Source: Trichodesmium erythraeum IMS101 (lineage in GTDB: Bacteria > Cyanobacteriota > Cyanobacteriia > Cyanobacteriales > Microcoleaceae). From it: DNA of 32,000 nt. A program made the position numbers and the translations under genes. Under the pieces are notes generated by a model. That model was not told the origin of the DNA, searched no databases, and saw only the letters and a list, made by a program, of their open reading frames with translations. Where the stretch lies: contig NC_008312.1 of NCBI RefSeq assembly GCF_000014265.1, positions 5,700,001 through 5,732,000 of the forward strand, given 5' to 3'. Below are positions 2-25,606 of the stretch, in pieces. Position 1 is the first letter of the stretch. Every line of letters starts with the position of its first letter.

Positions 2-592
2 GGGGGACCATTGTTAAATAGTGCTGGAGAACTCATCGGTGTTAATACTGCTATACTTACTCCTAGTCAATTAGGGGGTAATATTGGTATTGGCTTTGCT
101 ATATCTATAGATAAAGTCCCAGAGTTGCTCAAGGCAGTTCGAGAAAGACGAGCACCTTTAGTCGCTCAACATTCAAGAAGTAGGATGTTTGATGAGGACT
201 TTGCTAAAAAATTAGACTTTGATGCTTTAATTGAAGTTCAAGGCAATTTAGATGGAGAATCTAATGTATTACCTGTAGATAATAGTTACTATGATCTTTA
301 TGCTTTTAAAGGTAGAGCAGGTCAAAAAATTTCTATTGATATGAGTAGTAATCAAATAGATTCTTACTTGATTTTATTAAACTCAGAAGATCAAGAATTA
401 GCTCAAGATGATGATAGTGGGGAAGACAAAAATGCTAGGATTATAATTATATTACCAAAGGATGGAACTTATAAGTTATTAGCAAATTCTTATGAAGCAG
501 GAGAGTCAGGAAAGTATGAGTTGAAAATTGAAGCAATTTCACCTAAAATGAGAATTTTATTTGAGCAAGAAAAGAGTAACTTTTATAGATAA
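2..592 (+). CDS. Trypsin-like (HtrA/DegP-type) serine protease, 3' partial, with a C-terminal pre-peptidase (PPC)-like domain
   Basis: The frame is open from the window edge. It reads GGPLLNSAGELIGVNTAI, the tail of the GNSGGPL active-site Ser motif of S1 proteases. The C-terminal ~90 aa (YYDLYAFKGRAGQKISIDM...DSYLILL...DGTYKLLANSYEAGESGKYELKIE) fit the PPC beta-sandwich pattern. The 5' end lies outside the window. Confidence 0.75.
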   Translation, partial: GGPLLNSAGELIGVNTAILTPSQLGGNIGIGFAISIDKVPELLKAVRERRAPLVAQHSRSRMFDEDFAKKLDFDALIEVQGNLDGESNVLPVDNSYYDLYAFKGRAGQKISIDMSSNQIDSYLILLNSEDQELAQDDDSGEDKNARIIIILPKDGTYKLLANSYEAGESGKYELKIEAISPKMRILFEQEKSNFYR

Positions 593-1247
593 ATTGGATG
601 ATTTTTTCTCGAATACTTATTTATTAGGAAGAGAATATAACATTCAGAGAATAGAGTGGAGGTTGATTACTGATACCCAGTATCTCCATTGATGATTTTT
701 TTTCAAGTTATAGCTATTGTTAAATAAATGATTGCGGGATAAGAAGATTATACTTTTAGTTTTAGATTTTATCTCAACTAAAAATATAATATATAGAAAA
801 AATTTAATATATAATATATAGAAAAAAAATTTATAATTAACTAAGTTACGATAAATTTTTTCATAATTTGATTTTTAATAAGACTTAGGTAAGCATCTAA
901 AATTATACACAAGAAGTATATGTTAAGGTTGTTCCCTCTACTAGATAAAGTGATGGATATGTATCCCACTTTTATTCATATTTAAACATTGATTTTAAAC
1001 TCTGTTCTACTGATGAAGACAGTGTACCTATTGTGTAATTATCTTCATTGAATAACTTAATTTATGTTGAATGTTATTTTTTCCAGCTTATAATTACTAG
1101 GCTTATGTATAGGAATATTTTTAATAATTGTTATACATACTAACTAAAATCTTCAATAATGTTTTTTAGTTAATAATTATTTGTGGTTATTTCCTACTAT
1201 GCTAGTAGACTAGTTGGATAATTTAATTAATATATTTGAGGTGATTA

Positions 1248-1946
1248 ATGCATCAAACAAAATTTTGGGCGATCGCTCCTTTTGGTCTACTAACTATTTT
1301 GGGAAAACCTTTACTTTCCCCCGCACTTCCAATTCATCAGGCCGTTGTTAATTTTAGCTATGTAGATGAAAGTTCAACGAAGTCTGAAATTTTTGCCCAG
1401 GATACTTCATTTCCCAAAGTGACTCCATCACCAGAAATGACTCCGACTTTAGAGGACAGTCCATCACCAGAAATGACTCCGACTTTAGAGGACAGTCCAT
1501 CACCAGAAATGACTCCGACTTTAGAGGACAGTCCATCACCAGAAATGACTCCGACTTTAGAAGACAGTCCATCACCAGAAATGATCCCTCCCACCCAAGA
1601 ACCAGAAATAATCTTACAGCAACCAGGAATGCTTAGTGATGATGATTTAGTACTTCCATCTGATGAAAGTGTTTACGATGAACATACTTTTGAAGGGACA
1701 GAAGGTCAGGTAGTAACTGTAACTGTAGAAAGTCCTGATTTTGATACTTACTTAGCAGTTTTTAGTCCTGATACTAAACTACTGGGAGAACATGATGATA
1801 TTAGTAAGAAAAATACAAACTCTCAACTAACAATTACTTTACCTATGACAGGTAAATACCGTGTAATAGTTAACTCTTACGATAAAACAGGTAGAGGTGA
1901 GTATAATTTACAAGTAATTCAATCAGGGCAAACATCAGATTTTTGA
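1248..1946 (+). CDS. Secreted repeat protein with a C-terminal PPC-like domain
   Basis: The N-terminus is hydrophobic and signal-like (FWAIAPFGLLTILGKPLL). It contains five SPSPEMTPTLED repeats. The C-terminal segment (YDEHTFEGTEGQVVTVTVESPDFDTYLAVF...TGKYRVIVNSYDKTGRGEYNLQV) is paralogous to the C-terminus of the 2..592 product. Confidence 0.7.
   Translation: MHQTKFWAIAPFGLLTILGKPLLSPALPIHQAVVNFSYVDESSTKSEIFAQDTSFPKVTPSPEMTPTLEDSPSPEMTPTLEDSPSPEMTPTLEDSPSPEMTPTLEDSPSPEMIPPTQEPEIILQQPGMLSDDDLVLPSDESVYDEHTFEGTEGQVVTVTVESPDFDTYLAVFSPDTKLLGEHDDISKKNTNSQLTITLPMTGKYRVIVNSYDKTGRGEYNLQVIQSGQTSDF
1424..1590 (+). repeat. 36-bp in-frame tandem repeat, about 4.6 copies
   Basis: The unit TCCATCACCAGAAATGACTCCGACTTTAGAGGACAG starts at 1424, 1460, 1496, 1532 and 1568. 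Across the full copies I saw one substitution (GAG to GAA in copy 4). Confidence 0.95.
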
Positions 1947-2510
1947 AGTTCTTCCCAAAGAAGCGTATTATTTACTGAATATTTTTGGCGTTGCTGAAGA
2001 CAAGGGCTGAAAATAAGATTTGCTCTTCAAGCACTTTTTCCCTGCCAAGATCATGTTCTGTTGAATACACATAATAAAAGTTTTGTGTACACAAGTGTTG
2101 CTAAATTTATTCTGGGATAAGCTTTGTGGTGATTTATCATAATTAGATCTCTCGGAAAATTAATCTCAAATTTTTAAATTTACTAGGCTAAAACTTAGTT
2201 TACCCAGAGATCTATTTAATTCTGGTCAATGATAAGCACTTAGGTGAGAGCGATCGCGATGATCTAAAAACATCCTTACTCTAAAAGTAGTACGATCATA
2301 TTTTTTTTTTCAACAACATTTTCACCAAATATTATTTTATCCTATTTGCTCTCTTTGTGCAACAAAGCTTTTGACTTGGTAAATTGAATTAGTAACTTGC
2401 TTGCTTTACAAGGCGATCACTACAGCTTTAAGTACGCTTTTGGTTAAACATTAGATTTTCATCATCTCACCAAAACTATTGAAAATAAAACCATAAGGAT
2501 ATATCAAACA

Positions 2511-2855
2511 ATGGATAATGATTTAAATATTCAGGTTGTACCTGTAGAGTTAGAGAATGGCAATGTAGTAAGAGTTGAAGCTACTGTTCTTAATGCATCA
2601 GGAGATACTTCTGATCAAGAAATTGAATCAGATGTGGCAGCTAATATCAGACCGCTCAAAGAAGTAACTGATACAGTAAAGGAAATTGCTGCAACTGTGA
2701 AAGCTTCCATAGATCAAGTTAAACCAACTAAAGCTTCTGTTGAATTTGGCTTAGAATTTGGTTATGAGTCAGGAAAGCTAACAGCTATGATCGTGAAAGG
2801 AACGGCAAAAGCAAATCTAAAAATTACTCTACATTGGGAAAATATTTCAAAATGA
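2511..2855 (+). CDS. trypco2-like (trypsin co-occurring domain 2 / CU044_2847-like) small protein
   Basis: 114 aa. The layout matches my memory of the family: an N-terminal beta segment (IQVVPVELENGNVVRVE), a helical middle, and a C-terminal VEFGLEFGYESGKLTAMIVKGTAKANLKITLHWE motif. It sits directly upstream of a trypsin-like protease and overlaps it. Confidence 0.75.
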   Translation: MDNDLNIQVVPVELENGNVVRVEATVLNASGDTSDQEIESDVAANIRPLKEVTDTVKEIAATVKASIDQVKPTKASVEFGLEFGYESGKLTAMIVKGTAKANLKITLHWENISK

Positions 2856-3775
2856 GGAATAGTATAGATGCCGGACGCTTGTACGAGTTATTTCGTAGTT
2901 GCATAGTACGAATTAAAACCTCAAAGAGTTTTGGTACAGGCTTTTGGGTCACTCCTGGACATATTCTTACCTGTGTTCATGTTATTGAGGGGAATGATCA
3001 CGATAGTATTGAAATTGTCTGGAAGCAAAATAATTATCAGTGTACAGAGATTAATATTTTTCAAGATGCTGACCTGGCTTTACTTAAGGTTGAAATAGAA
3101 AGTCATCCTTGTGTGTTTTTGGATGAAGACGCTTTACCAGGAGATGAGCTCTATAGTTATGGTTATCCTGAGCAAAAGCGAGATGGGGCTTCAATTACAA
3201 TGATTTGTGAAGGGCCTACAGATAATAAGAGGTTTTTGACGGTTAAGGATGAGAATGTTAGACCTGGGTTTAGTGGCGCTCCTTTATTTAATCAAAGAAC
3301 GTTCATGGTTTGTGGTGTGCTCAAGAGTGAACGTAAGTTTCCTGTTAATGGTAATGTACTACGGGCTTTGGGTGGACAAGCAATTCCAACTGCGAGAATT
3401 TTTGATAAGTGGCCTAATTTAAAAATATCTAATCAGGAGTTCCATCAAAAGTATCAAAGTTGGAGAAAAGAACTGGAAGTAACTAAACAGCAAGAACAAA
3501 ATTCACCACAATATTCGGCACAATATTCTATAAATAGTTCTTCTGAAAATCCGAGAATTCAATCTTTAAAAAATCAGAAACAAAGAATAGAGTCTCAGAT
3601 AGCTGAACTAGAAAAACTAAGTCATTTATGTAATCAAGATATAAAGGCAGAAACTAATTTGGCTAAAAGAAATCAGCTTCATACACAAATGGATAATTAT
3701 TCGACAGAAATTAACGAGTTATATGACAAGGTTCAGCAAATTATAGCTCAAATTAATAAGTTTCAAAATACTTAG
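2852..3775 (+). CDS. Trypsin-like serine protease (predicted effector) with a C-terminal coiled-coil adaptor tail
   Basis: Catalytic triad context: His in HILTCVHV, Asp in DADLALLKV, Ser in RPGFSGAPLF. The ATG at 2852 overlaps the upstream TGA (ATGA at 2852-2855), so I prefer it to the TTG at 2834. The last ~70 aa are a heptad-rich helix and form copy 1 of the 266-bp cassette. Confidence 0.85.
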   Translation: MRNSIDAGRLYELFRSCIVRIKTSKSFGTGFWVTPGHILTCVHVIEGNDHDSIEIVWKQNNYQCTEINIFQDADLALLKVEIESHPCVFLDEDALPGDELYSYGYPEQKRDGASITMICEGPTDNKRFLTVKDENVRPGFSGAPLFNQRTFMVCGVLKSERKFPVNGNVLRALGGQAIPTARIFDKWPNLKISNQEFHQKYQSWRKELEVTKQQEQNSPQYSAQYSINSSSENPRIQSLKNQKQRIESQIAELEKLSHLCNQDIKAETNLAKRNQLHTQMDNYSTEINELYDKVQQIIAQINKFQNT

Positions 3776-3804
3776 TTTATACAAGTAATTAAAAAGTTAT
3801 TTAA

Positions 3805-4041
3805 ATGTCAGATATTCAGAAATTAAAAAGTTTAGAAAATCGGCAACAAAGAATAGAGTCTCAGATAGCTGAACTAGAAAAACTAAGTCATTTATGTAAT
3901 CAAGATATAAAGGCAGAAACTAATTTGGCTAAAAGAAATCAGCTTCATACACAAATGGATAATTATTCGACAGAAATTAACGAGTTATATGACAAGGTTC
4001 AGCAAATTATAGCTCAAATTAATAAGTTTCAAAATACTTAG
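3805..4041 (+). CDS. Stand-alone coiled-coil adaptor module, 78 aa (copy 2)
   Basis: Intact ORF. The N-terminus resembles that of the 4608 gene (MSDIQKLKSLENRQQRIESQ against MSYIQKLKSLENQKQRIESQ). The remainder is identical to the protease tail. There is no clear Shine-Dalgarno sequence, so expression is uncertain. Confidence 0.5.
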   Translation: MSDIQKLKSLENRQQRIESQIAELEKLSHLCNQDIKAETNLAKRNQLHTQMDNYSTEINELYDKVQQIIAQINKFQNT

Positions 4042-4070
4042 TTTATACAAGTAATTAAAAAGTTATTTAA

Positions 4071-4307
4071 ATGTCAGATAGTCAGAAATTAAAAAGTTTA
4101 GAAAATCGGCAACAAAGAATAGAGTTTTAAATAGCTGAACCAGAAAAATTAAGTAATTTATCTAATCAAGACATAAAGGCAGAAAGTAATTTGGTTAAAA
4201 GAACTCAGCTTCATACACAAATGGATAATTATTCGACAAAAATTAATGAATTATATGATAAATTTCAGCAAATTATAGCTCAAATTAATAAGTTTCAAAA
4301 TACTTAG
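4071..4307 (+). pseudogene. Degenerate coiled-coil module (copy 3)
   Basis: Same ATG context as copy 2, but codon 20 is TAA (GAG TTT TAA in place of GAG TCT CAG). The rest aligns with copies 2 and 5. Confidence 0.7.
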
Positions 4308-4336
4308 TTTATACAAGTAATTAAAAAGTTATTTAA

Positions 4337-4578
4337 ATGTCAGATAGTCAGAAATTAAAAAGTTTGGAAAATCGGCAACAAAGAATAGAGTTTTAAATAG
4401 CATAGCTGAACCAGAAAAATTAAGTAATTTATCTAATCAAGACATAAAGGCAGAAAGTAATTTGGTTAAAAGAACTCAGCTTCATACACAAATGGATAAT
4501 TATTCGACAAAAATTAATGAATTATATGATAAATTTCAGCAAATTATAGCTCAAATTAATAAGTTTCAAAATACTTAG
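4337..4578 (+). pseudogene. Degenerate coiled-coil module (copy 4)
   Basis: Shares the TTT TAA nonsense with copy 3 and adds a 5-nt insertion (CATAG). Otherwise nearly identical to copy 3. Confidence 0.7.
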
Positions 4579-4607
4579 TTTATACAAGTAATTAAAAAGT
4601 TATCTAA

Positions 4608-5693
4608 ATGTCATATATTCAGAAATTAAAAAGTTTGGAAAATCAGAAACAAAGAATAGAGTCTCAAATAGCTGGACTAGAACAACTAAGCAATAAATGT
4701 AATCAAGAGATAAAGGCAGAAACTAGTTTAGCTCAAAGAACTCAGCTTAATACACAAATGGATAACTATTCGACAGAAATTAATGAACTATATAACAAAC
4801 TTGATCATATTGAAAATGAAATTGAAAATCTCAAGTTAAAGGAGAAAAGTTTGAGTTCAAACGATTATTTAGACAACCCTAAAAATCAGCAATTATTAAA
4901 ATTTGAGCAATACTTGTATGATATCGATTTTGAAAAAGCTTTAAAAACTTTTCAAAGAATTACATCTCAGTTTAATAAGGAGGGAGATGTAGCTTTGTTT
5001 TTCATAGAAAAATGTTTGACTAATCGAGGAGATTTATGTTTAAAAAGACTAAAAGATGACTTATTTTCAGAGACTTATAATATTCACAGGCAACATTTTC
5101 GTCCCTGTTTTGTCACATATACTTTAGGAAATTTAGAAGGAGTAATACAAGGAATAGCTAAATTTTTTGACGTTAAAAAAGAAGAAATGACTGTAGAATT
5201 AGTTATCAATAAAATAGGTAATTCTTTACAAAATAATTCGGTTTTGTTTATAGAAATTAATTGTGATATTAGTCAGCCTAGTGACATAGATCCATTAATA
5301 CCTTGGTTTATTAATGTTTTTTGGAAACCTTTGAGAGAAAAAGTAAACGAAGTAGCTAAGGATTATGAAGGTATTAAAGTTGTAGCTGTAATAACTTCTA
5401 ATCTATTACTTAATTCCAGATTTTCAAACTCAGAATTATCCTCCTACTATAATCGCAAAAGTAGAATTTTTTCTAGAGATAAATTAGTCAAAATACCTTT
5501 AGAAAAATGGAAAAAAGAAGATATTAAAAAATGGTTGACTAAATATGGTAATCCTCGTTTAAAAAACACAGATAAAGATACTATAGCTGAAAAAATTTAT
5601 AATGCAACTGACAAAGGAAGACCTACAGATGTTTGCCTAGCTTTACAACAAAAACAATGGCAAAACTTAATATATTCAAACCCTACCTATTAA
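4608..5693 (+). CDS. Coiled-coil adaptor (copy 5) fused to a degenerate P-loop/STAND-like domain (iSTAND-like)
   Basis: The first ~70 aa are homologous to the protease tail. The remainder has NTPase-like strand/helix spacing: DVALFFIEKCLTNRGD where a Walker A should be (no GxxxxGK[ST]), SVLFIEINCD (Walker-B-like), IKVVAVITSN (sensor-1-like) and KLVKIPLEKWKKEDIKKWL (STAND-like helical start). That it is a CDS is secure. The fold assignment is by eye. Confidence 0.6.
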   Translation: MSYIQKLKSLENQKQRIESQIAGLEQLSNKCNQEIKAETSLAQRTQLNTQMDNYSTEINELYNKLDHIENEIENLKLKEKSLSSNDYLDNPKNQQLLKFEQYLYDIDFEKALKTFQRITSQFNKEGDVALFFIEKCLTNRGDLCLKRLKDDLFSETYNIHRQHFRPCFVTYTLGNLEGVIQGIAKFFDVKKEEMTVELVINKIGNSLQNNSVLFIEINCDISQPSDIDPLIPWFINVFWKPLREKVNEVAKDYEGIKVVAVITSNLLLNSRFSNSELSSYYNRKSRIFSRDKLVKIPLEKWKKEDIKKWLTKYGNPRLKNTDKDTIAEKIYNATDKGRPTDVCLALQQKQWQNLIYSNPTY

Positions 5694-5711
5694 ACAATTA
5701 TAAGTTCAAAG

Positions 5712-6707
5712 ATGAATTACCATTTTGAAAATAATCCTAAAAATCGTCCTTCTAAACCTCATTCTGATTCACCTAAAAAAGTTGAACCCTACATTGCGCC
5801 AGATGAGTTAATTGATGCAGTAAACTTAGCAATTTTTCTGCGCCGTCCTCTCTTATTAGAAGGAGAAGCAGGCTGTGGAAAAACTCGATTACCACTCGCA
5901 GTTGCTTATGAATTAGGATTACCTTTTTATCGTTGGAATATTCGTTCAACTGCTAAAGCACAAGAAGGTTTATATGAATATGATGCTATCCTCAGACTCC
6001 ATGATGTTCAAACTCAAAAATTAGAAATAAAAAATAATAATCAAGACAAAGATAAAACTTATAGAAATCCTAGTAACCCTGAAAATTATCGAACTTTTGG
6101 AGCAATTGGTAATGCTTTTCTTTCAAATTGCCCGGCAATAGTTTTAATTGATGAAATAGATAAAGCTGACGTAGATTTTCCTAATGATTTACTAACAGTT
6201 TTAGATGAACCTTGGGAATTTAAAATTAGAGAAACTGGAGAAACAATTACCGCTAAAACTAATTGTCAGCCAATTGTAATTATTACTAGTAATAAAGAAA
6301 AAGGAAACTTACCAGCTCCTTTTCTACGTCGTTGTATTTATTATTATCTGAAATTTCCAGATGACCCTAAACAACTTCAAAAAATTGTTGATATTCACTA
6401 TCAATATAAACCAGACTCAGAAATTCTCAAAAAAATTAATTCCTCAAATAATGAATTAGTACAACAAGCTGCTCAACTATTTATTAAAATTAGAGAAAAT
6501 AAAGGCTTATTTAAAATTCCAGGTACAAGTGAATTTTTAGATTGGTTATATGCACTTTGTAGTTGTCAGACAAAACAAAATCCTCAGCTTCCTTATCCTC
6601 TTGAGAAATTAAAAGAAGGAGAATTAATTCCTTATCGAGAATTAATTTTTAAAATTCGTCAAGATTGGCAAAAAAATACCACTTTTCCTCAAACTAGTGA
6701 TTTATAA
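5712..6707 (+). CDS. MoxR-like AAA+ ATPase (AAA_5 type)
   Basis: Walker A LLEGEAGCGKTRL, Walker B IVLIDEIDKAD, sensor-1 IVIITSN, and an Arg-rich LPAPFLRRC segment. Size and order are typical of MoxR partners of vWA proteins. Confidence 0.9.
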   Translation: MNYHFENNPKNRPSKPHSDSPKKVEPYIAPDELIDAVNLAIFLRRPLLLEGEAGCGKTRLPLAVAYELGLPFYRWNIRSTAKAQEGLYEYDAILRLHDVQTQKLEIKNNNQDKDKTYRNPSNPENYRTFGAIGNAFLSNCPAIVLIDEIDKADVDFPNDLLTVLDEPWEFKIRETGETITAKTNCQPIVIITSNKEKGNLPAPFLRRCIYYYLKFPDDPKQLQKIVDIHYQYKPDSEILKKINSSNNELVQQAAQLFIKIRENKGLFKIPGTSEFLDWLYALCSCQTKQNPQLPYPLEKLKEGELIPYRELIFKIRQDWQKNTTFPQTSDL

Positions 6708-6774
6708 AATATCTCAAACTTCAACTTATTTGAACTACATTTTATTCACTTAAGCACAAAACTTTCAACCACTC

Positions 6775-7839
6775 ATGTTTGAACCTAACTCTTATTTAAC
6801 AACTCTTTTTTATCATTTGCGTCAAGCAGGTTTTAATCTGAGTATTAAAGAATACTTTTCGGTAAAAGATGCAATTAAAGGAGGTTGGGGAACAAAAAAT
6901 CAAGAAGACTTAAAAAAACTCCTACGCTTACTATGGTGTAACTCTTGGGAGCAACAACAGCATTTATCCCTAATATTTGATAGGATTTTTGAATCTGAAA
7001 AAACTCAAGAAACAACACCAAACCCCTCCACAAAAAATCAAAAAAATTTAAATTATGAACAACTTGAATCAGACTCATCAACTCCTATTTCTCCTACTAC
7101 AAAATTTCAATCTTCTTCAACAGAAATAACTAAACCAACCACTGAAAAACTATCCCCACTACCTATCACTAATATTCAACCAATACGAGAACATGAAAAC
7201 GACGCCGAATTTTATACTTATTATCCCATTTCTCGCCGTTTTATGGTTTATAGTTGGCGATATTTACGTCGCCCCATTGCTGACGGACTTAGAGATGTTT
7301 TAGATATTAAAATGACTGTTGAACAAGCTACAAAACAAGGATTTTTCTTACAACCAGTCTACCGTCGACGAGAAAAAAATCATGCTCATTTACTAATTTT
7401 CGTAGATCAAGAAGGTTCCATGACTCCCTTTCATCATTTCAGTCAAGACTTAGTAGAAACAGCTAAATATGAAAGCTCTATAGAAACAGTAGACGTTGCT
7501 TATTTTCATAACTTACCAGCAAAATATATTTATCAAGATCCTTTTTTGACTGATAAAATTTCCTTAGAAACTGTCTTAAATAAATGTGATAGTGAAACTA
7601 GAATTTTAATCATTAGTGATGCAGGTGCTGCTAGGGGGTATCGTCAGCGAACAAGAGTTTCAGGCACAACTGAAGTAATATGGGAAATTCAACAGCATAC
7701 TAACTTAGTAGCATGGCTTAACCCAGTTCCAAAAATGCGTTGGAATAACACTACAGCTAGTATTATCTCTCATTTAATACCTATGTTTCCTATGGATCAA
7801 GAAGGTTTAAGACAAGCTATTTTGACTTTACAAAGATAA
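6775..7839 (+). CDS. von Willebrand factor A (vWA, CoxE-like) protein, partner of the MoxR ATPase
   Basis: C-terminal vWA pattern: HLLIFVDQEGSM (MIDAS position) followed by RILIISDAGAARG. There is an N-terminal helical region and a low-complexity S/T/P/Q linker. It lies immediately downstream of the MoxR gene. Confidence 0.8.
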   Translation: MFEPNSYLTTLFYHLRQAGFNLSIKEYFSVKDAIKGGWGTKNQEDLKKLLRLLWCNSWEQQQHLSLIFDRIFESEKTQETTPNPSTKNQKNLNYEQLESDSSTPISPTTKFQSSSTEITKPTTEKLSPLPITNIQPIREHENDAEFYTYYPISRRFMVYSWRYLRRPIADGLRDVLDIKMTVEQATKQGFFLQPVYRRREKNHAHLLIFVDQEGSMTPFHHFSQDLVETAKYESSIETVDVAYFHNLPAKYIYQDPFLTDKISLETVLNKCDSETRILIISDAGAARGYRQRTRVSGTTEVIWEIQQHTNLVAWLNPVPKMRWNNTTASIISHLIPMFPMDQEGLRQAILTLQR

Positions 7840-7846
7840 TATAGAA

Positions 7847-9430
7847 ATGACAGAAATAACAGATAAAATTATCGCTCAGAATAAAGTAGAACAATTTGTA
7901 AGTCGTTTTGAAGATTCCTATTTCTTATTAGCTTCCCATGTCGCTTTACCTCTAGTATTAACTCCAGAATTAGTCAATTATCTCAGAATTGAATTTCTCA
8001 AAAGTGAAAAAGTTCCTTGGATTTCTGAAGCTGATTTATTGTTATCTAATTTGTGTCGTCCAGTTGGTTATGAACTTTATGTAATGGATGAAGGAGTAAG
8101 AATTTATTTACTCCAAAAATTAGCAGAAAACCCAAAGTTTGGTCAGAAAAGAATTAAAGAAATTGCCCGTTTATTACTGAGCTATATTAAATATTTAGCT
8201 AAAACTAATCATTTTATTGGAGACAAAGAACTACAACTTCAGACATGGGGTGCAATGTTGTATTTAGATACAGAGAAAACTGTCAAGGAAATAGCTTTTG
8301 CTATCTCTCAATGTATAGATAAAGCAGAGTTAGCTCGTTTACTAAAAATTACCCAAGATTTTAAACAACAAATAGCTTCATCAGGACAATTTCAAGACTT
8401 TTTAGACTATGCTCAACTTTGTAATGAATTACTTAGAGAACCTGAAAAAGTAACCCTAGAAAAAATAACACATTCATACCAGGTCGCAAAGCTTGAATTA
8501 ACTATACCAAAAATAGTTTTATCAAAAGAATTAGATCTAGGGGAATTATTTTATTTTGAAGTTGTAAAAGTTGATAATTTTGGCAATATTATTGAGCGTA
8601 GTCAGGAAAGCGCTAGGCAGAAAATAGAATATTTGGGTAATGAAATTAAATTGGAAATGGTTTATATTCCTGGGGGTACTTTTACCATGGGTTCTCCTAA
8701 AAGTGAAGTGGATAGCAGAGATAATGAACGGCCCCAACATCAGGTAACTGTTCCTTCCTTTTTTATGGGCAAATATCCAGTAACTCAAGGACAGTGGAAA
8801 GCGATCGCCTCTCGAACAGAATTAAAAGTAGAACGAGACCTAGACCCAGAGCCATCATATTTTAAAGAACCATACGAAAGTATAGATAGATGGCAGAGAC
8901 CAGTGGAGCTGGTTAGTTGGAACCAAGCAGTAGAATTTTGTCAAAGACTATCAAAACTAACAGGAAGAAAGTACAGGTTACCCAGTGAAGCCGAATGGGA
9001 ATATGCTTGTCGTGCAGGAACGAGTACACCATTCTACTTTGGAGAAACCATAACATCTGAGTTAGCTAACTATGATGGCAACCATACTTACGGCAAAGGG
9101 CCAAAAGGAGAAAATAGAGAGCAAACAACTCCTGTAGGTAAATTTCCACCAAATGCTTTTGGTTTATATGATATGCACGGAAACGTTGATGAATGGTGTG
9201 CTGACGACTGGTATGATAATTATGTAGGAGCTCCTACAGATGGAAGTGCTAGGATTAATAGTAATAAAAATAGTAATACTAATAGTACAAAAGTATTTCG
9301 TGGCGGCTCCTGGATCTACTATCCTTGGTGGTGTCGCTCTGCGCTCCGCGGCAACTTTAACTCGGACGAGGCGGACAGCATCTCTTTTGGTTTTCGTCTT
9401 GTGAGTTTCCCCCCCAGGACTTTTGAATAG
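7847..9430 (+). CDS. N-terminal helical domain of unknown function fused to a formylglycine-generating-enzyme/sulfatase-modifying (FGE-sulfatase, FGS) domain
   Basis: From about residue 260: MVYIPGGTFTMGSP, ERPQHQVTVPSFFMGKYPVTQGQW, VSWNQAVEFCQRLS, YRLPSEAEWEYACRAGT, FGLYDMHGNVDEWC, RGGSW...FGFRLV. These are the canonical FGE-sulfatase motifs. The start is 7 nt after the vWA stop. Confidence 0.9.
   Translation: MTEITDKIIAQNKVEQFVSRFEDSYFLLASHVALPLVLTPELVNYLRIEFLKSEKVPWISEADLLLSNLCRPVGYELYVMDEGVRIYLLQKLAENPKFGQKRIKEIARLLLSYIKYLAKTNHFIGDKELQLQTWGAMLYLDTEKTVKEIAFAISQCIDKAELARLLKITQDFKQQIASSGQFQDFLDYAQLCNELLREPEKVTLEKITHSYQVAKLELTIPKIVLSKELDLGELFYFEVVKVDNFGNIIERSQESARQKIEYLGNEIKLEMVYIPGGTFTMGSPKSEVDSRDNERPQHQVTVPSFFMGKYPVTQGQWKAIASRTELKVERDLDPEPSYFKEPYESIDRWQRPVELVSWNQAVEFCQRLSKLTGRKYRLPSEAEWEYACRAGTSTPFYFGETITSELANYDGNHTYGKGPKGENREQTTPVGKFPPNAFGLYDMHGNVDEWCADDWYDNYVGAPTDGSARINSNKNSNTNSTKVFRGGSWIYYPWWCRSALRGNFNSDEADSISFGFRLVSFPPRTFE
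9299..9400 (+). other. Candidate DGR variable region (VR) at the 3' end of the FGS gene
   Basis: By my count there are 12 A in 102 nt and about 57% GC, in a locus that is about one-third GC. The protein reads GGSW-IYYPWW-CRSA-L-R-GNFNSDEADSIS-FGFR. That is the conserved scaffold of CLec/FGE-fold DGR targets, with idiosyncratic residues where template-repeat Asn codons usually sit. No cognate TR or RT is in the window. Confidence 0.45.
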
Positions 9431-9464
9431 CCCTTTGCCCTCTTGCCCTCTTGCCCTATTTAGT

Positions 9465-9491
9465 CTCGCCTTTGGCGAGCCGAATTTTTTT
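9465..9491 (+). terminator. GC hairpin plus T-run: operon terminator and/or DGR-associated hairpin
   Basis: CTCGCC (9465-9470), TTT loop, GGCGAG (9474-9479), then CCGAATTTTTTT. It lies 35 nt after the FGS stop codon. Confidence 0.5.
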
Positions 9492-10363
9492 GAGAAATTA
9501 TCAAATGGCCACCAAATCAATAGATTTAATAGATATAACAATAGAAAAAAGCTCAGAACACTAAATTATGCAAAATTTTGTTTAAAAGCCGAAATTAATG
9601 ACTTAAACTGTGCTTCGACTGGTATCATAAATATGAAGCTTAGGCTCAAAAACCTAAAATTTAGGGCAGGAAGAAAATTCCCAGAAAATTTATCCTCTTA
9701 TCCCGTAATTAAATAAAGACACCCAGGTTTAAACCCGTAGTCAAAGTCTGGAATGCTAGTGTCTACTTGCAAAAAATAGTAGTATTATTTTTAGGTTGAA
9801 TTTCCTTAAGTTCAAGTTTTTTGTTTTACCTTAGCAAGCATATTAATTTATACAACTAGATAATAGTGTTGCTTCTCAGGAAAATTTCTGAATACTTGAT
9901 TATCTCTTACTAACGAATTTTTGTTGAATAAAAAGTCATGTATATAGGCAAGTTTCTCCATCTAATCTTATAATATCACAAAAAAAAATCTGAGAAGGGG
10001 AGGAAAGATTTTGCGCCGCGTCGCTTTTTCGGAGCTCCAGAAAATGAAATAAAAGTTGGCGATTTTCTACTGAGGAAGAATAAATGGAAAAATTCGACTA
10101 TGGGAAAAAAATAGAGGGGTGCTTCACAGAATGAGTTAAATAAATTAGTCTTACTTTTGGGAAAATTATTAAATGCTTGATTCTATTTTCCTAAAAAAAA
10201 GAGTTGAATAAAAAGTCATGTATATAGGCAAGTTTCTCCATCTAATCTTATAATATCACAAAAAAAATCTGAGAAGGGGAGGAAAGATTTTGCGCCGCGC
10301 CTCTTTTTCGGAGCTTCAGAAAATGAAAAAAAAAGTTGTTGATTTTCTACTGAGGAAGAATAA

Positions 10364-10459
10364 ATGGAAAAGTTCGGCGGTGGGAAAGAATATTGGAGTG
10401 CTTCACAGAATGAGTTAAATGAATTAGTCTTGCTTTTGGGAAAATTATTAAATCCTTGA
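10364..10459 (+). CDS. Array-encoded small ORF, 31 aa (MEKFGGGKEYWSASQNELNELVLLLGKLLNP)
   Basis: GAGGAAG lies 5 nt upstream of the ATG. The frame is shared with units 3, 4, 6 and 7. Coding status is unproven. Confidence 0.3.
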   Translation: MEKFGGGKEYWSASQNELNELVLLLGKLLNP

Positions 10460-10642
10460 TTGTATTTTCCTGAAAAAAAAGAGCTGAATAAAAAGTCATG
10501 TATATAGGCAAGCTTCTCCATCTAATCTTATAATATCACAAAAAAAATCTGAGAAGGGGAGAAAAATTTCTGCGCCGCGCCGTTTTTTCGGAGCCCCAGA
10601 AGATGAAATAAAAGTTGGCGATTTTCTACTAAGGAAGAATAA

Positions 10643-10747
10643 ATGGAAAATTTCCGCGATGGGAAAGAATATTGGAGTGCTTCAGAACATGAGCTAAATG
10701 AGTTAAATGAATTAGCCTTGCTTTTGGGAAAATTATTAAATCCTTGA
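10643..10747 (+). CDS. Array-encoded small ORF, 34 aa (MENFRDGKEYWSASEHELNELNELALLLGKLLNP)
   Basis: AAGGAAG lies 5 nt upstream of the ATG. It differs from the 31-aa form by an in-frame 12-nt indel. Confidence 0.3.
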   Translation: MENFRDGKEYWSASEHELNELNELALLLGKLLNP

Positions 10748-10930
10748 TTGTATTTTCCTGAAAAAAAAGAGTTGAATAAAAAGTCATGTATATAGGCAAG
10801 CTTTTCCATCTAATCTTATAATATCACAAAAAAAATCTGAGAAGGGGAGAAAAATTTCTGCGCCGCGCCGCTTTTTTGGAGCCTCAGAAGATGAAATAAA
10901 AGTTGGTGATTTTCTACTAAGGAAGAATAA

Positions 10931-11035
10931 ATGGAAAAATTCGGCGATGGGAAAGAATATTGGAGTGCTTCAGAACATGAGCTAAATGAGTTAAATGAAT
11001 TAGCCTTGCTTTTGGGAAAATTATTAAATGCTTGA
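10931..11035 (+). CDS. Array-encoded small ORF, 34 aa (MEKFGDGKEYWSASEHELNELNELALLLGKLLNA)
   Basis: AAGGAAG lies 5 nt upstream of the ATG. The frame is intact. Confidence 0.3.
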   Translation: MEKFGDGKEYWSASEHELNELNELALLLGKLLNA

Positions 11036-11510
11036 TTGTATTTTCCTGAAAAAAAAGAGTTGAATAAAAAGTCATATATATAGGCAAGCTTCTCCATCTA
11101 ATCTTATAATATCACAAAAAAAATCTGAGAAGGGGAGAAAAATTTCTGCGCCGCGCCTCTTTTTCGGAGCTCCATAAGATGAAATAAAAGTTGGTGATTT
11201 TCCGCTGAGGAAGAATAAATGGAAAAATTCGGCGAAGGGAAAGAATAGCGGAGTGCTTTACAGGATGAGTTAAATGATCTGAATGAGCTAAATAAATTAG
11301 TCTTGCTTTTGGGAAAATTATTAAATCCTTGATTGTATTTTCCTAAAAAAAAAGAGTTGAATAAAAAGTCATATATATAGGCAGGCTTCTCCATCTAATA
11401 AGATCACAAAAAAAATCTGAGAAGGGGAGGAAAGATTTTGCGCCGCGCCGCTTTTTCGGAGCCTCAGAAGATGAAATAAAAGTTGGTGATTTTCTACTAA
11501 GGAAGAATAA

Positions 11511-11615
11511 ATGGAAAAATTCGGCGATGGGAAAGAATATTGGAGTGCTTCAGAACATGAGCTAAATGATCTAAATGAATTAGCCTTGCTTTTGGGAAAA
11601 TTATTAAATGCTTGA
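11511..11615 (+). CDS. Array-encoded small ORF, 34 aa (MEKFGDGKEYWSASEHELNDLNELALLLGKLLNA)
   Basis: AAGGAAG lies 5 nt upstream of the ATG. The frame is intact. The TATAAT box of this unit is deleted (CTAATAAGATCAC). Confidence 0.3.
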   Translation: MEKFGDGKEYWSASEHELNDLNELALLLGKLLNA

Positions 11616-11798
11616 TTGTATTTTCCTAAAAAAAAAGAGTTGAATAAAAAGTCATATATATAGGCAAGTTTCTCCATCTAATCTTATAATATCACAAAAA
11701 AAATCTGAGAAGGGGAGAAAAATTTCTGCGCCGCGCCTCTTTTTCGGAGCTCCAGAAAATGAAAAAAAAGTTGGTGATTTTCTACTAAAGAAGAATAA

Positions 11799-11894
11799 AT
11801 GGAAAATTTCGGCGATGGGAAAGGATATTGGAGTGCTTCACAAAATGAGTTAAATGAATTAGTCTTGCTTTTGGGAAAATTATTAAATGCTTGA
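11799..11894 (+). CDS. Array-encoded small ORF, 31 aa (MENFGDGKGYWSASQNELNELVLLLGKLLNA)
   Basis: A weaker AAGAAG lies 5 nt upstream of the ATG. The frame is intact. Confidence 0.25.
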   Translation: MENFGDGKGYWSASQNELNELVLLLGKLLNA

Positions 11895-12912
11895 TTATAT
11901 TTTCCTAAAAAAAAGAGTTGAATAAAAAGTCATACATATAGGCAAGGTTCCACATCTAATCTTATAGTATCACAAAAAAATCTGAGGAGGGGAGGGAAAA
12001 TTTTGCGTCGCGTCGCTTTTTCAGAGCTCCAGAAAATGAAGCCAAAATGGTGATCTCCTCTGAGGAAGAATATGTGAGAGAGAATAGCGGAGTGCTTCAC
12101 AGGATAAGCCAAATGAATTAGTCTTGCTTTTGGGAAAACTATTAAATCCTTGATTGTATTTTCCTAAAAAAAAGAGTTGAATAAAAAGTCATGTATATAG
12201 GCAAGCTTCCTATTTAATCTTATATTATCACAAAAAATCTGAGAAGGGGAGGAAAGATTTTTCGACGCGCTACTTTCCCGGAGCTCCAGAGAATGAAATA
12301 AAATGGTTTGTGACTTTTCACTAAAGAAGAATAAATGAAAAAATTCGACTATGGGAAAAAAATAGAGGGGTGCTTCACAGAATGAGTTAAATAAATTAGT
12401 CTTACTTTTGGGAAAATTATTAAATGCTTGATTCTATTTTCCTAAAAAAAAGAGTTGAATAAAAAGTCATGTATATAGGCAAGCTTTCCATCTAACCTTA
12501 TAATATCACAAAAAAATCTGAGAAGAGGAGGAAAGACTTTGCGCCGCGCCTCTTTTTCGGAGCCACAGAAGATGAAATAAAAGTTGATGATTTTCTACTA
12601 AGGAAGAATAAATGGAAAATTCGACCATGGGAAAGAATAGCTAAGTGCTTCACAGAATGAGCCAAAAGAATGGGAAAATTATTAAATCCTTGATTGTATT
12701 TTCCTAAAAAAAAGAGTTGAATAAAAAGTCATGTATATAGGCAATATTCCCCATCTAATCTTATATTATCATAAAAAATCTGAAAATGGAAGGGAAATTT
12801 CTGTAGCGCGCCGCTTTTTTTTTTGGAGCTTCAGAGAATGAAAAAAAATCATTTGTGACTTTTCATTAAAGAGGAATAGATAGAAAAATTCGACTATAAT
12901 TCTCCCCTTAAT

Positions 12913-19799: not shown

Positions 19800-20960
19800 G
19801 AAGCTGTGCTTAATATAAATTAACAAGATGTAATAGTGAAGAAAATAATAGAGCGATCGCCAGCCTAAACATTGGCCATTAATAAAGTATTGGTAATAAA
19901 TTCCCAGCCAGTTATTTGAGATATTACTTTTTGAGTTAATTTATTTAAACTCTTAGTCAGAGCAATTTGTCATTTTTCTATACTGTCAAAATTAATTAAC
20001 TTAAAATCTTCTTTAATGTATCACCACAATCTCTCTATATAATTAACTTGTGGACTATATGGTAGTTGAAATAATAGAATAATATTCTCAGGAAGATTTA
20101 AGTTTAAAGCTTTGTGTAAACGACTTATTTAAACTCTTAGTCAGAGCAATTTGTCATTTTTCTATACTGTCAAAATTAATTAACTTAAAATTTTCTTTAA
20201 TGTATCACCACAATCTCTCTATATAATTAACTTGTGGACTATATGGTGGTTGAAATAATAGAATAATATTCTCAGGAAGATTTAAGTTTAAAGCTTTGTG
20301 TAAACGACTATTCTCTAACTAAATTATGTATATTTTATGAATTCAATTGCTATCCAAATAATTCAAAAAACTTTTCAAAGCCAATACAATTAATGAGAGT
20401 AAATTCCCAAAAAAAGCTTTCTCCTTTTAATGGTTATACTAACTATTATAACCATCTATATCAAAATTTTCATTGTTCTTTTCCTATCGATTTTACTCTT
20501 TTGAAAGTCACCTTTTATCCAGAAAAAGTTTTAATCTCAAAACGACTTTGATCCTGACACCAATCACGAATTTTTATACTATCTTTCAACATTTATTGAT
20601 TTTTATCTAACAGAGATTGAATTAGACCTGGTAGTTTTTTTTCCAGTTATTTACAGCATCTTTTTCTTGTTTGATATTAACTGGACGTGGAACTGTGAGT
20701 TTGGTTTTTAATTGATAATGAGCTATTTTAGATATAGTTCCATAACTTGCTGGGATATTATAAACACTCAATACCATTTATAAATTTCAGTATAACTATA
20801 AAAACCTTCTGGACCTTCTAATTCTCCTTTTAATTAATCTTTAAATATTTCTGGAATTAAAGATTGACGACCATAACTGGTATCAATTGTTAATAGTTTT
20901 TCTATTCTACCTTTACAGTAACTTAACTATCTAGAATTTGCTTATGATATTTTTTTTTCA
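19800..20960 (-). mobile_element. Degenerate IS630-family transposase relic
   Basis: Minus-strand translation, broken by many stops and frameshifts, gives an HTH-region fragment ...EGPEGFYSYTEIYKW...KTKLTVPRPVNIKQEKDAVNNWKK and a DDE-region fragment NIILLFQLPYSPQVNYIERLWWYIKEDF (compare LPPYSPELNPIE). The boundaries are approximate. Confidence 0.6.
19941..20308. repeat. 184-bp tandem duplication (2 copies) inside the IS630 relic
   Basis: 19941-20124 and 20125-20308 differ at two positions by my reading. Confidence 0.9.
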
Positions 20961-24009: not shown

Positions 24010-24772
24010 AATATGATAATTTTGTATGTTTTCAAGCTACTATTGAGTTCAGTAATTACTCAAAACCCATTTTTATGAGCAGTTCATAATGGTGATCAAA
24101 GTCTAGAGGAATTTTCTGGTATCTATGTCAAAGTTAGGGAAAACCTTTGTAAGGGTTTGTAATTAGAACTTACTTGGGCATTAGATGAGAATGCAGTTGC
24201 TATTTGTACCTGGTTAATACTTTTGACTTGAAATATAACCTAGATAAATAAAAGAAGAAATTTGACTCTGGCTTCATGCTAATAAAAGTAGTGTTTAAAG
24301 TTTTTTGTAGTCAACTCTGGAGGGGTAATAGGCAAGACTAAAAAGCTGACATAAAATGGTTTGTAGCTTTTATAATTCTCTGATAATTGAGCCATTTTTG
24401 AGAGTTATTGGCTATCAATTCCTCTGTTTATTCTGCAAACATGAACAAGGAATTTAACCAATATTGACCTCTATTTCCTGTATAAATATAGCTATTTTGT
24501 TTATATTTTATTCCTTTTTAAATTGGATAATTTACATAATTTACGACTCTTTTTTGACAATGTATTTTTCAAAAATTAATAATTAATAGGAAGCTAAAGT
24601 CATCAATAATATGATAGAAATTAATATTTTACCTTAACTTTAGTTACTTCCAAATTATAGCCTATTGTATTAAGAAATGGGAACATTTATTCAATACCTA
24701 TTCGTTTTTTATAGGTATTTATTTTCATTTATAAATCCCATAAATTTGTAATTATAAATTATGGCTGTTTTA

Positions 24773-25606
24773 CTATATTTTTTTCGATTTTAAGACAATA
24801 TTGATTGATATAAAATACTTAGATTGATTGATTTTTTTATTGTAAATATATAGATATATTCAGCTTTATTTATAATAATATTATAGCTATATATAGTTAT
24901 ATTTATATATACAATCTTTTTTTTCTCTAAAATAAAAACATGTCTTTTATTGATTTTTAACTATTTAGCTAGTTCCATAATATAGAATAATCTATTTCAT
25001 AAAGCTACTTTTTGGCAATCATCAAATCGAGCTAAAACTATCGGGATAAAACTTTAGATAAATATTCTTGCTTTCCTCTAAAATTACTATTACTTTTTTT
25101 GTCAATATTAGTAATATAAAATTGACTTACATATATCGCAATTGTTGATATTTATCTATATTTTTTTCTATTTTAAGACAATATTTATTGATATAAAATA
25201 CTTAGATTTATTGATTTTTTTTTATTGTAAATATATAGATATATTCGGCTTTATTCATAATTATATTATAGCTATATATAGTTATAGTTATATTTATATA
25301 TACAATCTTTTTTTTCTCTAAAATAAAAACATGTCTTTTATTGATTTTTAACTATTTAGCTAGTTCCATAATATAGAATAATCTATTTCATAAAGCTACT
25401 TTTTGGCAATCATCAAATCGAGCTAAAACTATCGGGATAAAACTTTAGATAAATATTCTTGCTTTCCTCTAAAATTACTATTACTTTTTTTGTCAATATT
25501 AGTAATATAAATCGGCATACTATTAAGTTTATAAATTAGGCTTATTAATAATAAATTTACCCAATTAAATTGACTTACATATATCGCAATTGTTGGTATT
25601 TATCTA
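24773..25606. repeat. 383-bp tandem duplication (2 copies), extremely AT-rich and non-coding
   Basis: Copy 1 is 24773-25155 and copy 2 is 25156-25606. Copy 2 carries a ~56-bp insertion (TCGGCATACTATTAAG...CCCAATTA) and a few small indels. No ORF is present. Confidence 0.9.

Follow-up and report, generated by a model that had tools for sequence, protein, structure and literature searches.

What kind of system is formed by six consecutive genes of the filamentous cyanobacterium Trichodesmium erythraeum IMS101, which encode among others a trypsin-like protease, a MoxR-like ATPase and an FGE-sulfatase-domain (FGS) protein, and in which direction would a signal pass between their products? The genes lie within a stretch of 32,000 nt (contig NC_008312.1, positions 5,700,001 to 5,732,000; the window hereafter), which is AT-rich with a GC content of about 33%, and all coordinates are positions within this 32-kb window. 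Six large open reading frames (ORFs), all on the same strand, span 2511-9430 in the ORF list. We consider it very probable that the locus is a split-form iSTAND-type MoxR-vWA ternary conflict system. The explanation that we favour as a whole, in which this identity is combined with a mechanism that would lead from an FGS sensor to a protease effector, is held with moderate confidence.

Composition and identity of the operon

The iSTAND ternary systems were defined by Kaur et al. 2020 (eLife, PMC7159879); FGS is their commonest effector (22%), peptidases and effector-associated domains (EADs) are found at the iSTAND N-terminus, and Trypco1 or Trypco2 lies beside the trypsins. The split vWA / vWA-L-effector form was described by Kaur et al. 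in eLife 2021 (PMC8195603). The window locus resembles these systems (PMC7159879, PMC8195603) in its MoxR-like AAA+ protein, its CoxE-type vWA protein, a Walker-A-less iSTAND protein with an N-terminal adaptor, an adjacent trypsin bearing the same adaptor, a Trypco gene beside the latter, a C-terminal FGS module, and a filamentous cyanobacterial host. It differs from them in that the adaptor segment has been amplified to five units with a free adaptor-only ORF, the adaptor is a weak match to EAD9, and no sequence link could be made from the helical domain of the FGS protein to a VMAP-type linker. The suggestion of the initial annotation that this gene combination might be an undescribed variant is thus unsupported, its parts matching the iSTAND ternary systems including the split vWA form. 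Its broader proposal, an NTP-dependent conflict system of the type surveyed by Kaur, Burroughs, Iyer and Aravind, is supported by profile matches, fold matches and synteny.

From motifs alone the same annotation had read an intact serine protease, an intact AAA+ MoxR protein, a vWA domain, an FGE-sulfatase domain and a Walker-A-less NTPase-like domain, and profile searches bear these assignments out. The protease matches Pfam Trypsin_2 (48.8 bits, 1.6e-12) above the curated cut-off, with its catalytic residues H43, D74 and S141 within the motifs TCVH, DLALL and GFSGAP. The MoxR-like ATPase scores 29.9 bits against AAA and 26.4 bits against AAA_5, and has a Walker A of GEAGCGKT and a Walker B of IVLIDE. 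For the vWA protein the match is to VWA_CoxE (PF05762; 34.1 bits, cut-off 26.4), for the FGS protein to FGE-sulfatase (203.7 bits, 5e-60, above cut-off) and for the iSTAND protein to PF19995 (45.6 bits, 1.3e-11, cut-off 24); in the last of these a motif scan found no GxxxxGK[ST] (Walker A).

The first gene had been read as Trypco2, and here the annotation was wrong. Its product matches Trypco1 (PF19493, 6e-21, 75.3 bits, cut-off 24.6) over profile positions 1-97 of 98, and NCBIfam NF041216 (CU044_2847) with 72.4 bits; no Trypco2 match was found in Pfam at E<=0.1. According to Kaur et al. (PMC7159879), Trypco1 and Trypco2 are mutually exclusive.

Because the specific MoxR models of Pfam remain unmatched (bpMoxR 12.9 bits, cut-off 27), the name "MoxR-like" rests on context and on the classification of Kaur et al. 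The ATPase is 75-89% identical across genera, and its best sequence match in the PDB is midasin. In the vWA protein, the N-terminal domain matches NCBIfam NF041121 (SAV_2336 N-terminal domain, 7e-10), and residues 209-215 contain D-Q-E-G-S where DxSxS is usual. The Glu is kept in 10 of 10 loci (locus L016 has DREGS), and DQEGS may represent a family-specific altered metal-ion-dependent adhesion site (MIDAS).

The AlphaFold2 model of the iSTAND protein (mean predicted local distance difference test, pLDDT, 83) places a C-terminal alpha/beta NTPase-like domain after a disordered linker, with adaptor helices at residues 3-37 and 41-78 (pLDDT ~90). Foldseek finds ORC/Cdc6 as its best matches and also the STAND NLRs NRC4 and Sr35 (resistosomes) and Dark. 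Protease domains of the PADLOC entries LmuA, RT-Protease and Avs1b match the operon protease. The N-termini of the protease and the FGS protein have no obvious signal peptide or membrane helix, judged by eye from translations and AlphaFold2 secondary structure rather than with a predictor, and on this ground a cytoplasmic location is assumed for both. A separate trypsin/PPC-domain protease, at 11-592 of the window and at 5411-6595 of contig L001 (394 aa in L001), is encoded two genes upstream of the operon; with 27% identity to the operon protease, it probably has no part in the system.

Conservation of the neighbourhood among cyanobacteria had been set beforehand as a check, and the cassette is indeed syntenic in other genera. 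The core cassette (adaptor-iSTAND, MoxR, vWA of ~355 aa, helical domain plus FGS) is conserved in Anabaena/Nostoc (L007-L009), Xenococcus (L010-L012), Calothrix rhizosoleniae (L015) and Okeania (L019), as well as in other Trichodesmium (L014, L016) and an uncultured cyanobacterium. This four-gene core was seen in at least five other cyanobacterial genera, and a scan of a genome collection gave 7 related loci. The vWA and FGS genes are separate in all cassette loci. The upstream gene varies by locus, being Trypco1 plus trypsin, CHAT, CHAT-TIR or a 297-aa unknown protein, and the upstream protein ends in the same adaptor wherever the iSTAND protein begins with this adaptor. An orthologous cassette with a CHAT effector lies at 5730-21080 of L007/L008 (89-kb AP018170.1, CP186036.1; the cluster is named from Anabaena cylindrica FACHB-243), where its neighbours include a phage-type integrase, Tn5 and ISL3 transposases, and a bAvd gene with another FGE-domain gene; from the last pair, a diversity-generating retroelement (DGR) apparently lies close by in that replicon.

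Of the uniformly tight junctions that had been described, some hold: the ATGA overlap at 2852-2855 and the gaps of 18 nt before 5712 and 7 nt before 7847. The claim fails for the protease and iSTAND genes, which are separated by 832 nt (3776-4607), and for the MoxR and vWA genes, separated by 67 nt. The features of the locus are collected in Table 1.

Table 1. Genes, repeats and candidate signals of the Trichodesmium erythraeum locus (window coordinates; gene coordinates from the ORF list)
Feature	Position	Strand	Description	Basis
Trypco1 protein	2511-2855	+	114 aa; stop overlaps protease start (ATGA)	Pfam PF19493, NCBIfam NF041216
Trypsin-like serine protease	2852-3775	+	307 aa; Q/S-rich linker; C-terminal helical adaptor (~3542-3772, array unit 1)	Pfam Trypsin_2
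iSTAND protein	4608-5693	+	361 aa; N-terminal hairpin adaptor (aa 3-78, unit 5), disordered linker, Walker-A-less NTPase-like domain	Pfam PF19995
MoxR-like AAA+ ATPase	5712-6707	+	331 aa; Walker A (K57) and Walker B (D147/E148) intact	Pfam AAA, AAA_2, AAA_5 above cut-off
CoxE-type vWA protein	6775-7839	+	354 aa; MIDAS variant DQEGS	Pfam PF05762
FGS protein	7847-9430	+	527 aa; helical N-domain aa 1-210, beta extension aa 233-264, FGE/C-type-lectin-fold aa 270-519	Pfam FGE-sulfatase
Tandem array	3542-4841	+	Five ~266-nt units; unit = adaptor coding sequence, stop, 29-nt spacer	Repeat search, alignment, Tandem Repeats Finder
Array unit 2	3805-4041	+	Intact free adaptor-only ORF, 78 aa	ORF list
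Array unit 3	4071-4307	+	Decayed; in-frame TAA at codon 20 (4128-4130); 38-aa remnant ORF	Alignment
Array unit 4	4337-4578	+	Decayed; TAA of unit 3 plus 5-nt insertion	Alignment
Hypervariable FGS stretch	9314-9388	+	Likely DGR variable region in scaffold RGGSW..P..CRSA.R....GFR	Haplotype comparison
Weak sigma-70-like promoter candidate	2371-2398	+	TTGACT 2371-2376, 16 nt, TAACTT 2393-2398	Sequence present
Terminator-like hairpin	9465-9491	+	CTCGCC-TTT-GGCGAG (9465-9479), T7 (9485-9491)	Terminator scan

The adaptor pair and its tandem array

The proposed pairing of the protease tail with the N-terminus of the iSTAND protein is strongly supported by comparison of loci. All 8 loci examined have the adaptor both at the iSTAND N-terminus and at the C-terminal end of the upstream protein, and the two copies are mutual closest relatives in every locus. 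Identity between tail and head is 63-83% within a locus and 32-57% between distant loci; individual values are 71% against at most 52% for L010, 73% against at most 57% for L012 and, with the near-identical relative L019 left out, 80% against at most 57% for L014. To judge from these alignments, the two adaptor copies of a locus are evolving in concert. The module has no enzyme family matches, and it shows all three hallmarks of an EAD, since it occurs as two copies in adjacent genes, is small, non-enzymatic and helical, and is closest to its partner within the locus. Which EAD family it belongs to is less clear. Matches to EAD9 (PF19962) at E<=0.05 were obtained with 13 of 14 related adaptor copies (best 3.4e-6), and P0037, a 29%-identical iSTAND homologue, carries a precomputed PF19962 match; the candidate assignment of the window adaptor to EAD9 is borderline. 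In some relatives EAD1 replaces this adaptor at the iSTAND N-terminus, from which modularity follows.

The gap between the protease and iSTAND genes is filled by a tandem array in which every unit derives from the same ~75-aa helical-hairpin adaptor coding sequence (Tandem Repeats Finder: period 266, 4.6 copies, score 2019, 93% matches); the initial annotation makes no mention of it. Unit 1 is the C-terminus of the protease and unit 5 the N-terminus of the iSTAND protein; successive units are spaced 266, 266, 271 and 266 nt apart with a mean column identity of 90%, and the 29-nt spacer ends in the ATG of the following unit. The protease tail is 88% identical to the free 78-aa ORF of unit 2. 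The latter is unit-5-like in the first 50 alignment columns (45/50) and identical to unit 1 in its other 226 nt (226/226), and unequal crossing-over between the two adaptor segments would be expected to yield such a chimera. Units 3 and 4 agree at 274 of 281 positions, the 5-nt insertion being the main difference, and their private substitutions exclude an assembly artefact.

Comparable arrays are found in the metagenomes. Intact 78-aa variants with other crossover points occur there, one of which (P0164) combines the first 52 residues of an iSTAND head with a protease-tail end of the type found in Trichodesmium MAG_R02 (L016), and lies as a free ORF 29 nt upstream of an iSTAND gene. MAG_R02, a second species, has an array of ~1.7 kb with ~9 units, mostly fragments; at 6946-7319 of L016, TGTTAGG/TTAGGTG heptamer tracts of 10-17 copies are inserted into decayed adaptor units. 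Other contigs have 2, 3 or 5 units. We do not take these copy-number differences as proof of polymorphism, as short-read assemblies collapse or break repeats and several scaffolds contain N gaps; nor is the intactness of the 78-aa variants used as evidence of selection, the database taking in called ORFs only.

Tandem arrays that duplicate gene ends are known in Trichodesmium (PMC4143802). Here, the repeat structure indicates that unequal crossing-over between the two adaptor segments produced the array, with its one intact and two decayed internal units. The best explanation of the array is that it arose as a side product of the homologous exchange by which the two adaptors are kept matched. 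A more elaborate idea, which we regard as improbable, is that it acts as a tuning device: recurrent unequal crossing-over and gene conversion would keep the docking surfaces matched and private to this system and would also generate 78-aa decoys, which by competing for the iSTAND hairpin would make a suicide protease harder to activate. Were that so, array copy number may be expected to vary among Trichodesmium populations.

In animals, CARD and PYD domains recruit caspases by homotypic interaction, and CARD-only and PYD-only proteins act as decoys. By analogy only, in the window a small, non-catalytic helical module is shared by a STAND-like scaffold and a protease, and there is a free adaptor-only polypeptide as well. 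The likeness has limits, in that the window adaptor is a two-helix hairpin and the death fold has six helices, the scaffold NTPase is inactive and the decoy role is hypothetical. If the decoy idea were true, the product of the free ORF would play in bacteria the part that CARD-only and PYD-only decoys play in animals, and the parallel with death-fold signalling would be extended.

The window contains further repeats. A second, larger tandem array at 9877-12900, ~450 nt past the operon, consists of ~10-11 units of 278-292 nt (Tandem Repeats Finder score 3817, 86% matches; no Rfam match). Minus-strand ORFs of 93-102 aa within it look like repeat artefacts, and the array is reminiscent of tandem arrays of T. 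erythraeum that are reported to be non-coding and highly transcribed. Within ORF 1248-1946, which encodes a PPC-domain protein, a 36-nt repeat at 1424-1584 (4.5 copies, 99% identical) specifies a 12-residue unit rich in S, P, E and T; the product is 232 aa long here and 208, 133 and 169 aa as called in metagenome contigs, which suggests copy-number variation or assembly collapse. Long direct repeats are present at 19941-20309 (184 nt x 2, 98%) and 24769-25511 (391 nt x 1.9, 95%) in AT-rich intergenic DNA (23-27% GC). No Rfam family reached the gathering score anywhere in the window.

The FGS protein and its variable stretch

The AlphaFold2 model of the FGS protein (pLDDT 82.7) resembles PvdO (Foldseek 1e-19), TvpA (2y3c; 1.8e-15, root-mean-square deviation 2.7) and FGEs. 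In a HMMER alignment to 1Y1E, the position of FGE Cys336 is occupied by Tyr (Ile in another haplotype) and the second cysteine alone aligns; the active-site cysteines of the human enzyme are C336 and C341, a numbering drawn in part from PDB entry names. With Tyr at the position of the first catalytic cysteine, enzymatic FGE activity is unlikely. Compared with the linker that a VMAP-type vWA-FGS fusion (P0111) contains, the N-terminal helical domain shows no significant similarity. P0047 (854 aa), a candidate vWA-FGS fusion of this subfamily, was rejected, as it has two FGS domains.

Near the C-terminus of this protein lies a stretch that is likely a DGR variable region, on the pattern of its variation. 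We compared three haplotypes, those of the window, of L004 and of a paralogous VMAP-type vWA-FGS gene in L153. Between 9314 and 9388, 28 sites vary among them, 25 of these at codon positions 1-2, and at 21 sites at least one haplotype has A; the scaffold around the variable sites, the following 40 nt and the 3' untranslated region (UTR) are conserved. Across 16 near-identical contigs the FGS gene has 5 variable sites in its first 800 nt and 85 in its last 784 nt, and many contigs break within the FGS domain. A second cluster of 15 variable sites is found at 8697-8746 (FGS nt 851-900; SPKSEVDSRDNERP vs SPENEEDSNDSERP), at the start of the FGE domain and far from the canonical DGR region; this may reflect paralogue recombination, diversifying selection or chimeric assembly.

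DGRs of Trichodesmium act on at least 12-18 FGE-domain genes, remote ones included (PMC4143802, PMC8867640). Like TvpA (PDB 2Y3C) and the T. erythraeum DGR targets (PMC4143802), the window protein has an FGE fold, an N-terminal beta extension and the scaffold RGGSW..P..CRSA.R..GFR with variation at codon positions 1-2, and DGRs of the genus are known to have many FGE-domain targets at remote sites; the C-terminal motif is GFRLVSFPPRTFE in the window and GFRLVCDGGRTL in a kinase-type paralogue of T. erythraeum. It differs in that its 32-kb surroundings have no template repeat, reverse transcriptase or Avd, so that it would be a remote target if diversified by a DGR. A blastn search with word size 7 gave no template repeat in the window, a 31-nt match of 84% at 9609-9638 (E 0.02) being treated as chance. 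For 9299-9410 we predict a template-repeat core of ...GGATCAACTATCCTAGGAGGTGTCGCTCTGCGAAACGCAACAACTATAACTCAGACGAGACGGACAACAACAATATTGGTTTTCGTCTTGT. Its predicted 3' end, AACAACAAYNTTGGTTTTCG, is a motif generic to DGRs of many phyla; in a metagenome scan with it, the matches listed were unrelated DGRs with at most 67% identity to the variable region, and no Trichodesmium template repeat was among them. No A-rich copy of the variable region was found among the cyanobacterial loci compared.

Contig L153, from a Trichodesmium metagenome, carries at 380-7447 a VMAP-type ternary system composed of EAD1-VMAP-C, MoxR and an 863-aa vWA-FGS fusion. Its FGS DNA is 96% identical to that of the window over the 600 nt before the variable region, which suggests sharing or conversion of FGS cassettes among the different ternary systems of a genus. 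Since the L153 paralogue is followed by the same 3' UTR, the duplicated or converted segment reaches past the coding sequence. Right after the FGS stop, at 9431-9457, there is a short CCCTCTTG-type repeat, which is longer in L153 (7450 onward).

Signal flow, rival readings and significance

Under the favoured explanation, the lectin-fold tip of a cytoplasmic FGS protein would bind an invader-derived ligand, and the vWA/MoxR pair would act as an ATP-dependent switch by which ligand binding causes the iSTAND scaffold to assemble or be remodelled. The N-terminal hairpin of the latter would dock homotypically on the protease tail, and proximity would activate the protease, with Trypco1 as its partner or regulator. 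Proteolysis would then lead to growth arrest or death of the infected cell, by which the filament would be protected. The signal flow, the role of Trypco1 and a phage-defence phenotype are matters that we purely infer, and the direction from FGS through vWA/MoxR and iSTAND to the protease is tentative, falling a little short of an even chance. That FGS is the sensor, as first proposed, gains indirect support from the DGR-like hypervariability, although the direction stays conjectural; Dore et al. propose a DGR-diversified lectin-fold domain as the sensor in their 'antigen sensor' model (PMC10907252).

Several points weigh against this explanation. Signal direction is not constrained by the sequence, and Kaur et al. 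put sensing in the iSTAND protein with FGS as effector. Against EAD9 the free ORF of the window scores 16.7 bits and the iSTAND N-terminus 14.9 bits, below the gathering threshold of 25, and generic coiled-coil families score comparably on these copies. The 832-nt array may uncouple protease and iSTAND expression. No template repeat, reverse transcriptase or Avd was found in the window or in the Trichodesmium loci compared, so that DGR targeting is read solely from the pattern of variation. PADLOC-DB v2 gave no catalogued system, but isolated protease-domain and weak ATPase matches, and none for Trypco1, vWA or FGS. The literature searched holds no experimental study of any iSTAND-type system. 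The statement of the initial annotation that none of the NTP-dependent conflict systems was characterised no longer holds in full, as there is genetic evidence for a related pathway, Esr (10.64898/2026.09.08.750141).

Finally, neither promoter nor terminator is statistically supported. The leader upstream of the operon, given as ~560 nt, is 564 nt long (1947-2510) and free of ORFs. The promoter letters are at the place where they had been reported, but the -10 matches at 3 of 6 positions, the site falls below the threshold of the promoter scan, which does not list it, and promoter-like sites in the region number 26 against 34 +/- 6.7 in shuffles, i.e. without enrichment. Likewise the hairpin (6-bp stem with 5 GC pairs, 3-nt loop) and its T-run are present as described, but terminator-like sites are at chance level (2 against 3.5 +/- 1.8) and in L004 the 3' stem arm carries G-to-A changes. 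The single point in favour of a terminator is where the hairpin lies, 34 nt past the FGS stop.

Unlikely, yet deserving to be weighed first, is the same system with its flow reversed, as in the model of Kaur et al. The iSTAND protein would sense the invader, e.g. its nucleic acid, and the trypsin recruited by the adaptor would be a signalling peptidase that processes a vWA-associated protein under MoxR control, freeing or activating the FGS protein as effector or target-binding module. This agrees with the published view of EAD9-type adaptors, which 'primarily recruit the signaling components', and of iSTAND as the predicted invader sensor (PMC7159879, PMC8195603), with the DNA-binding ORC/Cdc6 folds as best matches of the iSTAND model, and with the 'effector position' of the FGS protein after vWA. 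However, one of the two FGE catalytic cysteines is missing from the FGS protein, so that no killing activity is evident for it, and its hypervariability is DGR-like, as a recognition surface would be expected to show. The core of the iSTAND protein is not comparably variable, being 100% identical across the compared metagenome contigs.

A regulatory or programmed-cell-death module, responding to stress or bloom collapse instead of invaders, with a DGR that tunes specificity for an endogenous ligand, is distinctly improbable. Vallota-Eastman et al. read cyanobacterial DGR targets as signal-transduction proteins (PMC7517822), and the absence of a PADLOC defence system and the housekeeping character of the chromosomal neighbours (accC-like biotin carboxylase, ycf66, GH3, RNase II, hisF) fit such a role. 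So does Esr, a MoxR-vWA-beta-propeller threat-sensing pathway of oral Actinobacteria with genetic evidence of threat-signal relay (2026 preprint, 10.64898/2026.09.08.750141), which drives transcription and secretion, not suicide. Esr shares with the window a MoxR-vWA pair between a sequence-divergent sensor and a variable output; it differs in its third component, a surface filament with beta-propeller accompanied by a kinase/phosphatase and an FHA protein, in its output of transcription or Esx secretion, and in having no iSTAND, protease or FGS. Against a non-immune role stand three traits typical of conflict systems, namely the rapid swapping of upstream effectors among relatives (trypsin, CHAT, CHAT-TIR), the location of the Anabaena/Nostoc copy on a plasmid by an integrase and transposases, and the hypervariability at population level.

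That the locus is decaying, an expanding repeat having split the operon and left the array and 78-aa ORF as neutral junk of a repeat-rich genome, is most improbable: stop codons in two of the three internal array units, the fragmentary MAG_R02 array with its invading TGTTAGG heptamers, the known gene-end-duplicating arrays of Trichodesmium (PMC4143802) and the 11-copy array just downstream all speak for it, but all six large ORFs are unbroken and, in many ocean metagenome contigs, 99-100% identical, with catalytic motifs intact and an FGS tip that is still diversifying, and neutrality explains the array status well and nothing else.

In multicellular prokaryotes, iSTAND-type MoxR-vWA systems have been put forward as the bacterial analogues of apoptosome- and inflammasome-like immunity. 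The present locus adds no new kind of system to these, and is a compact and fully intact example of a described class; unusual in it are the tandemly amplified docking module between two genes and the hypervariable FGS tip. It offers experimental handles in a two-helix adaptor pair whose homotypic pairing is directly testable, in naturally occurring variants, both adaptor-only and recombinant, from which the way the pair stays matched can be read, and in a putative sensor tip whose sequence differs among oceanic populations of a nitrogen fixer of global importance, and orthologues occur in the genetically tractable Anabaena/Nostoc.

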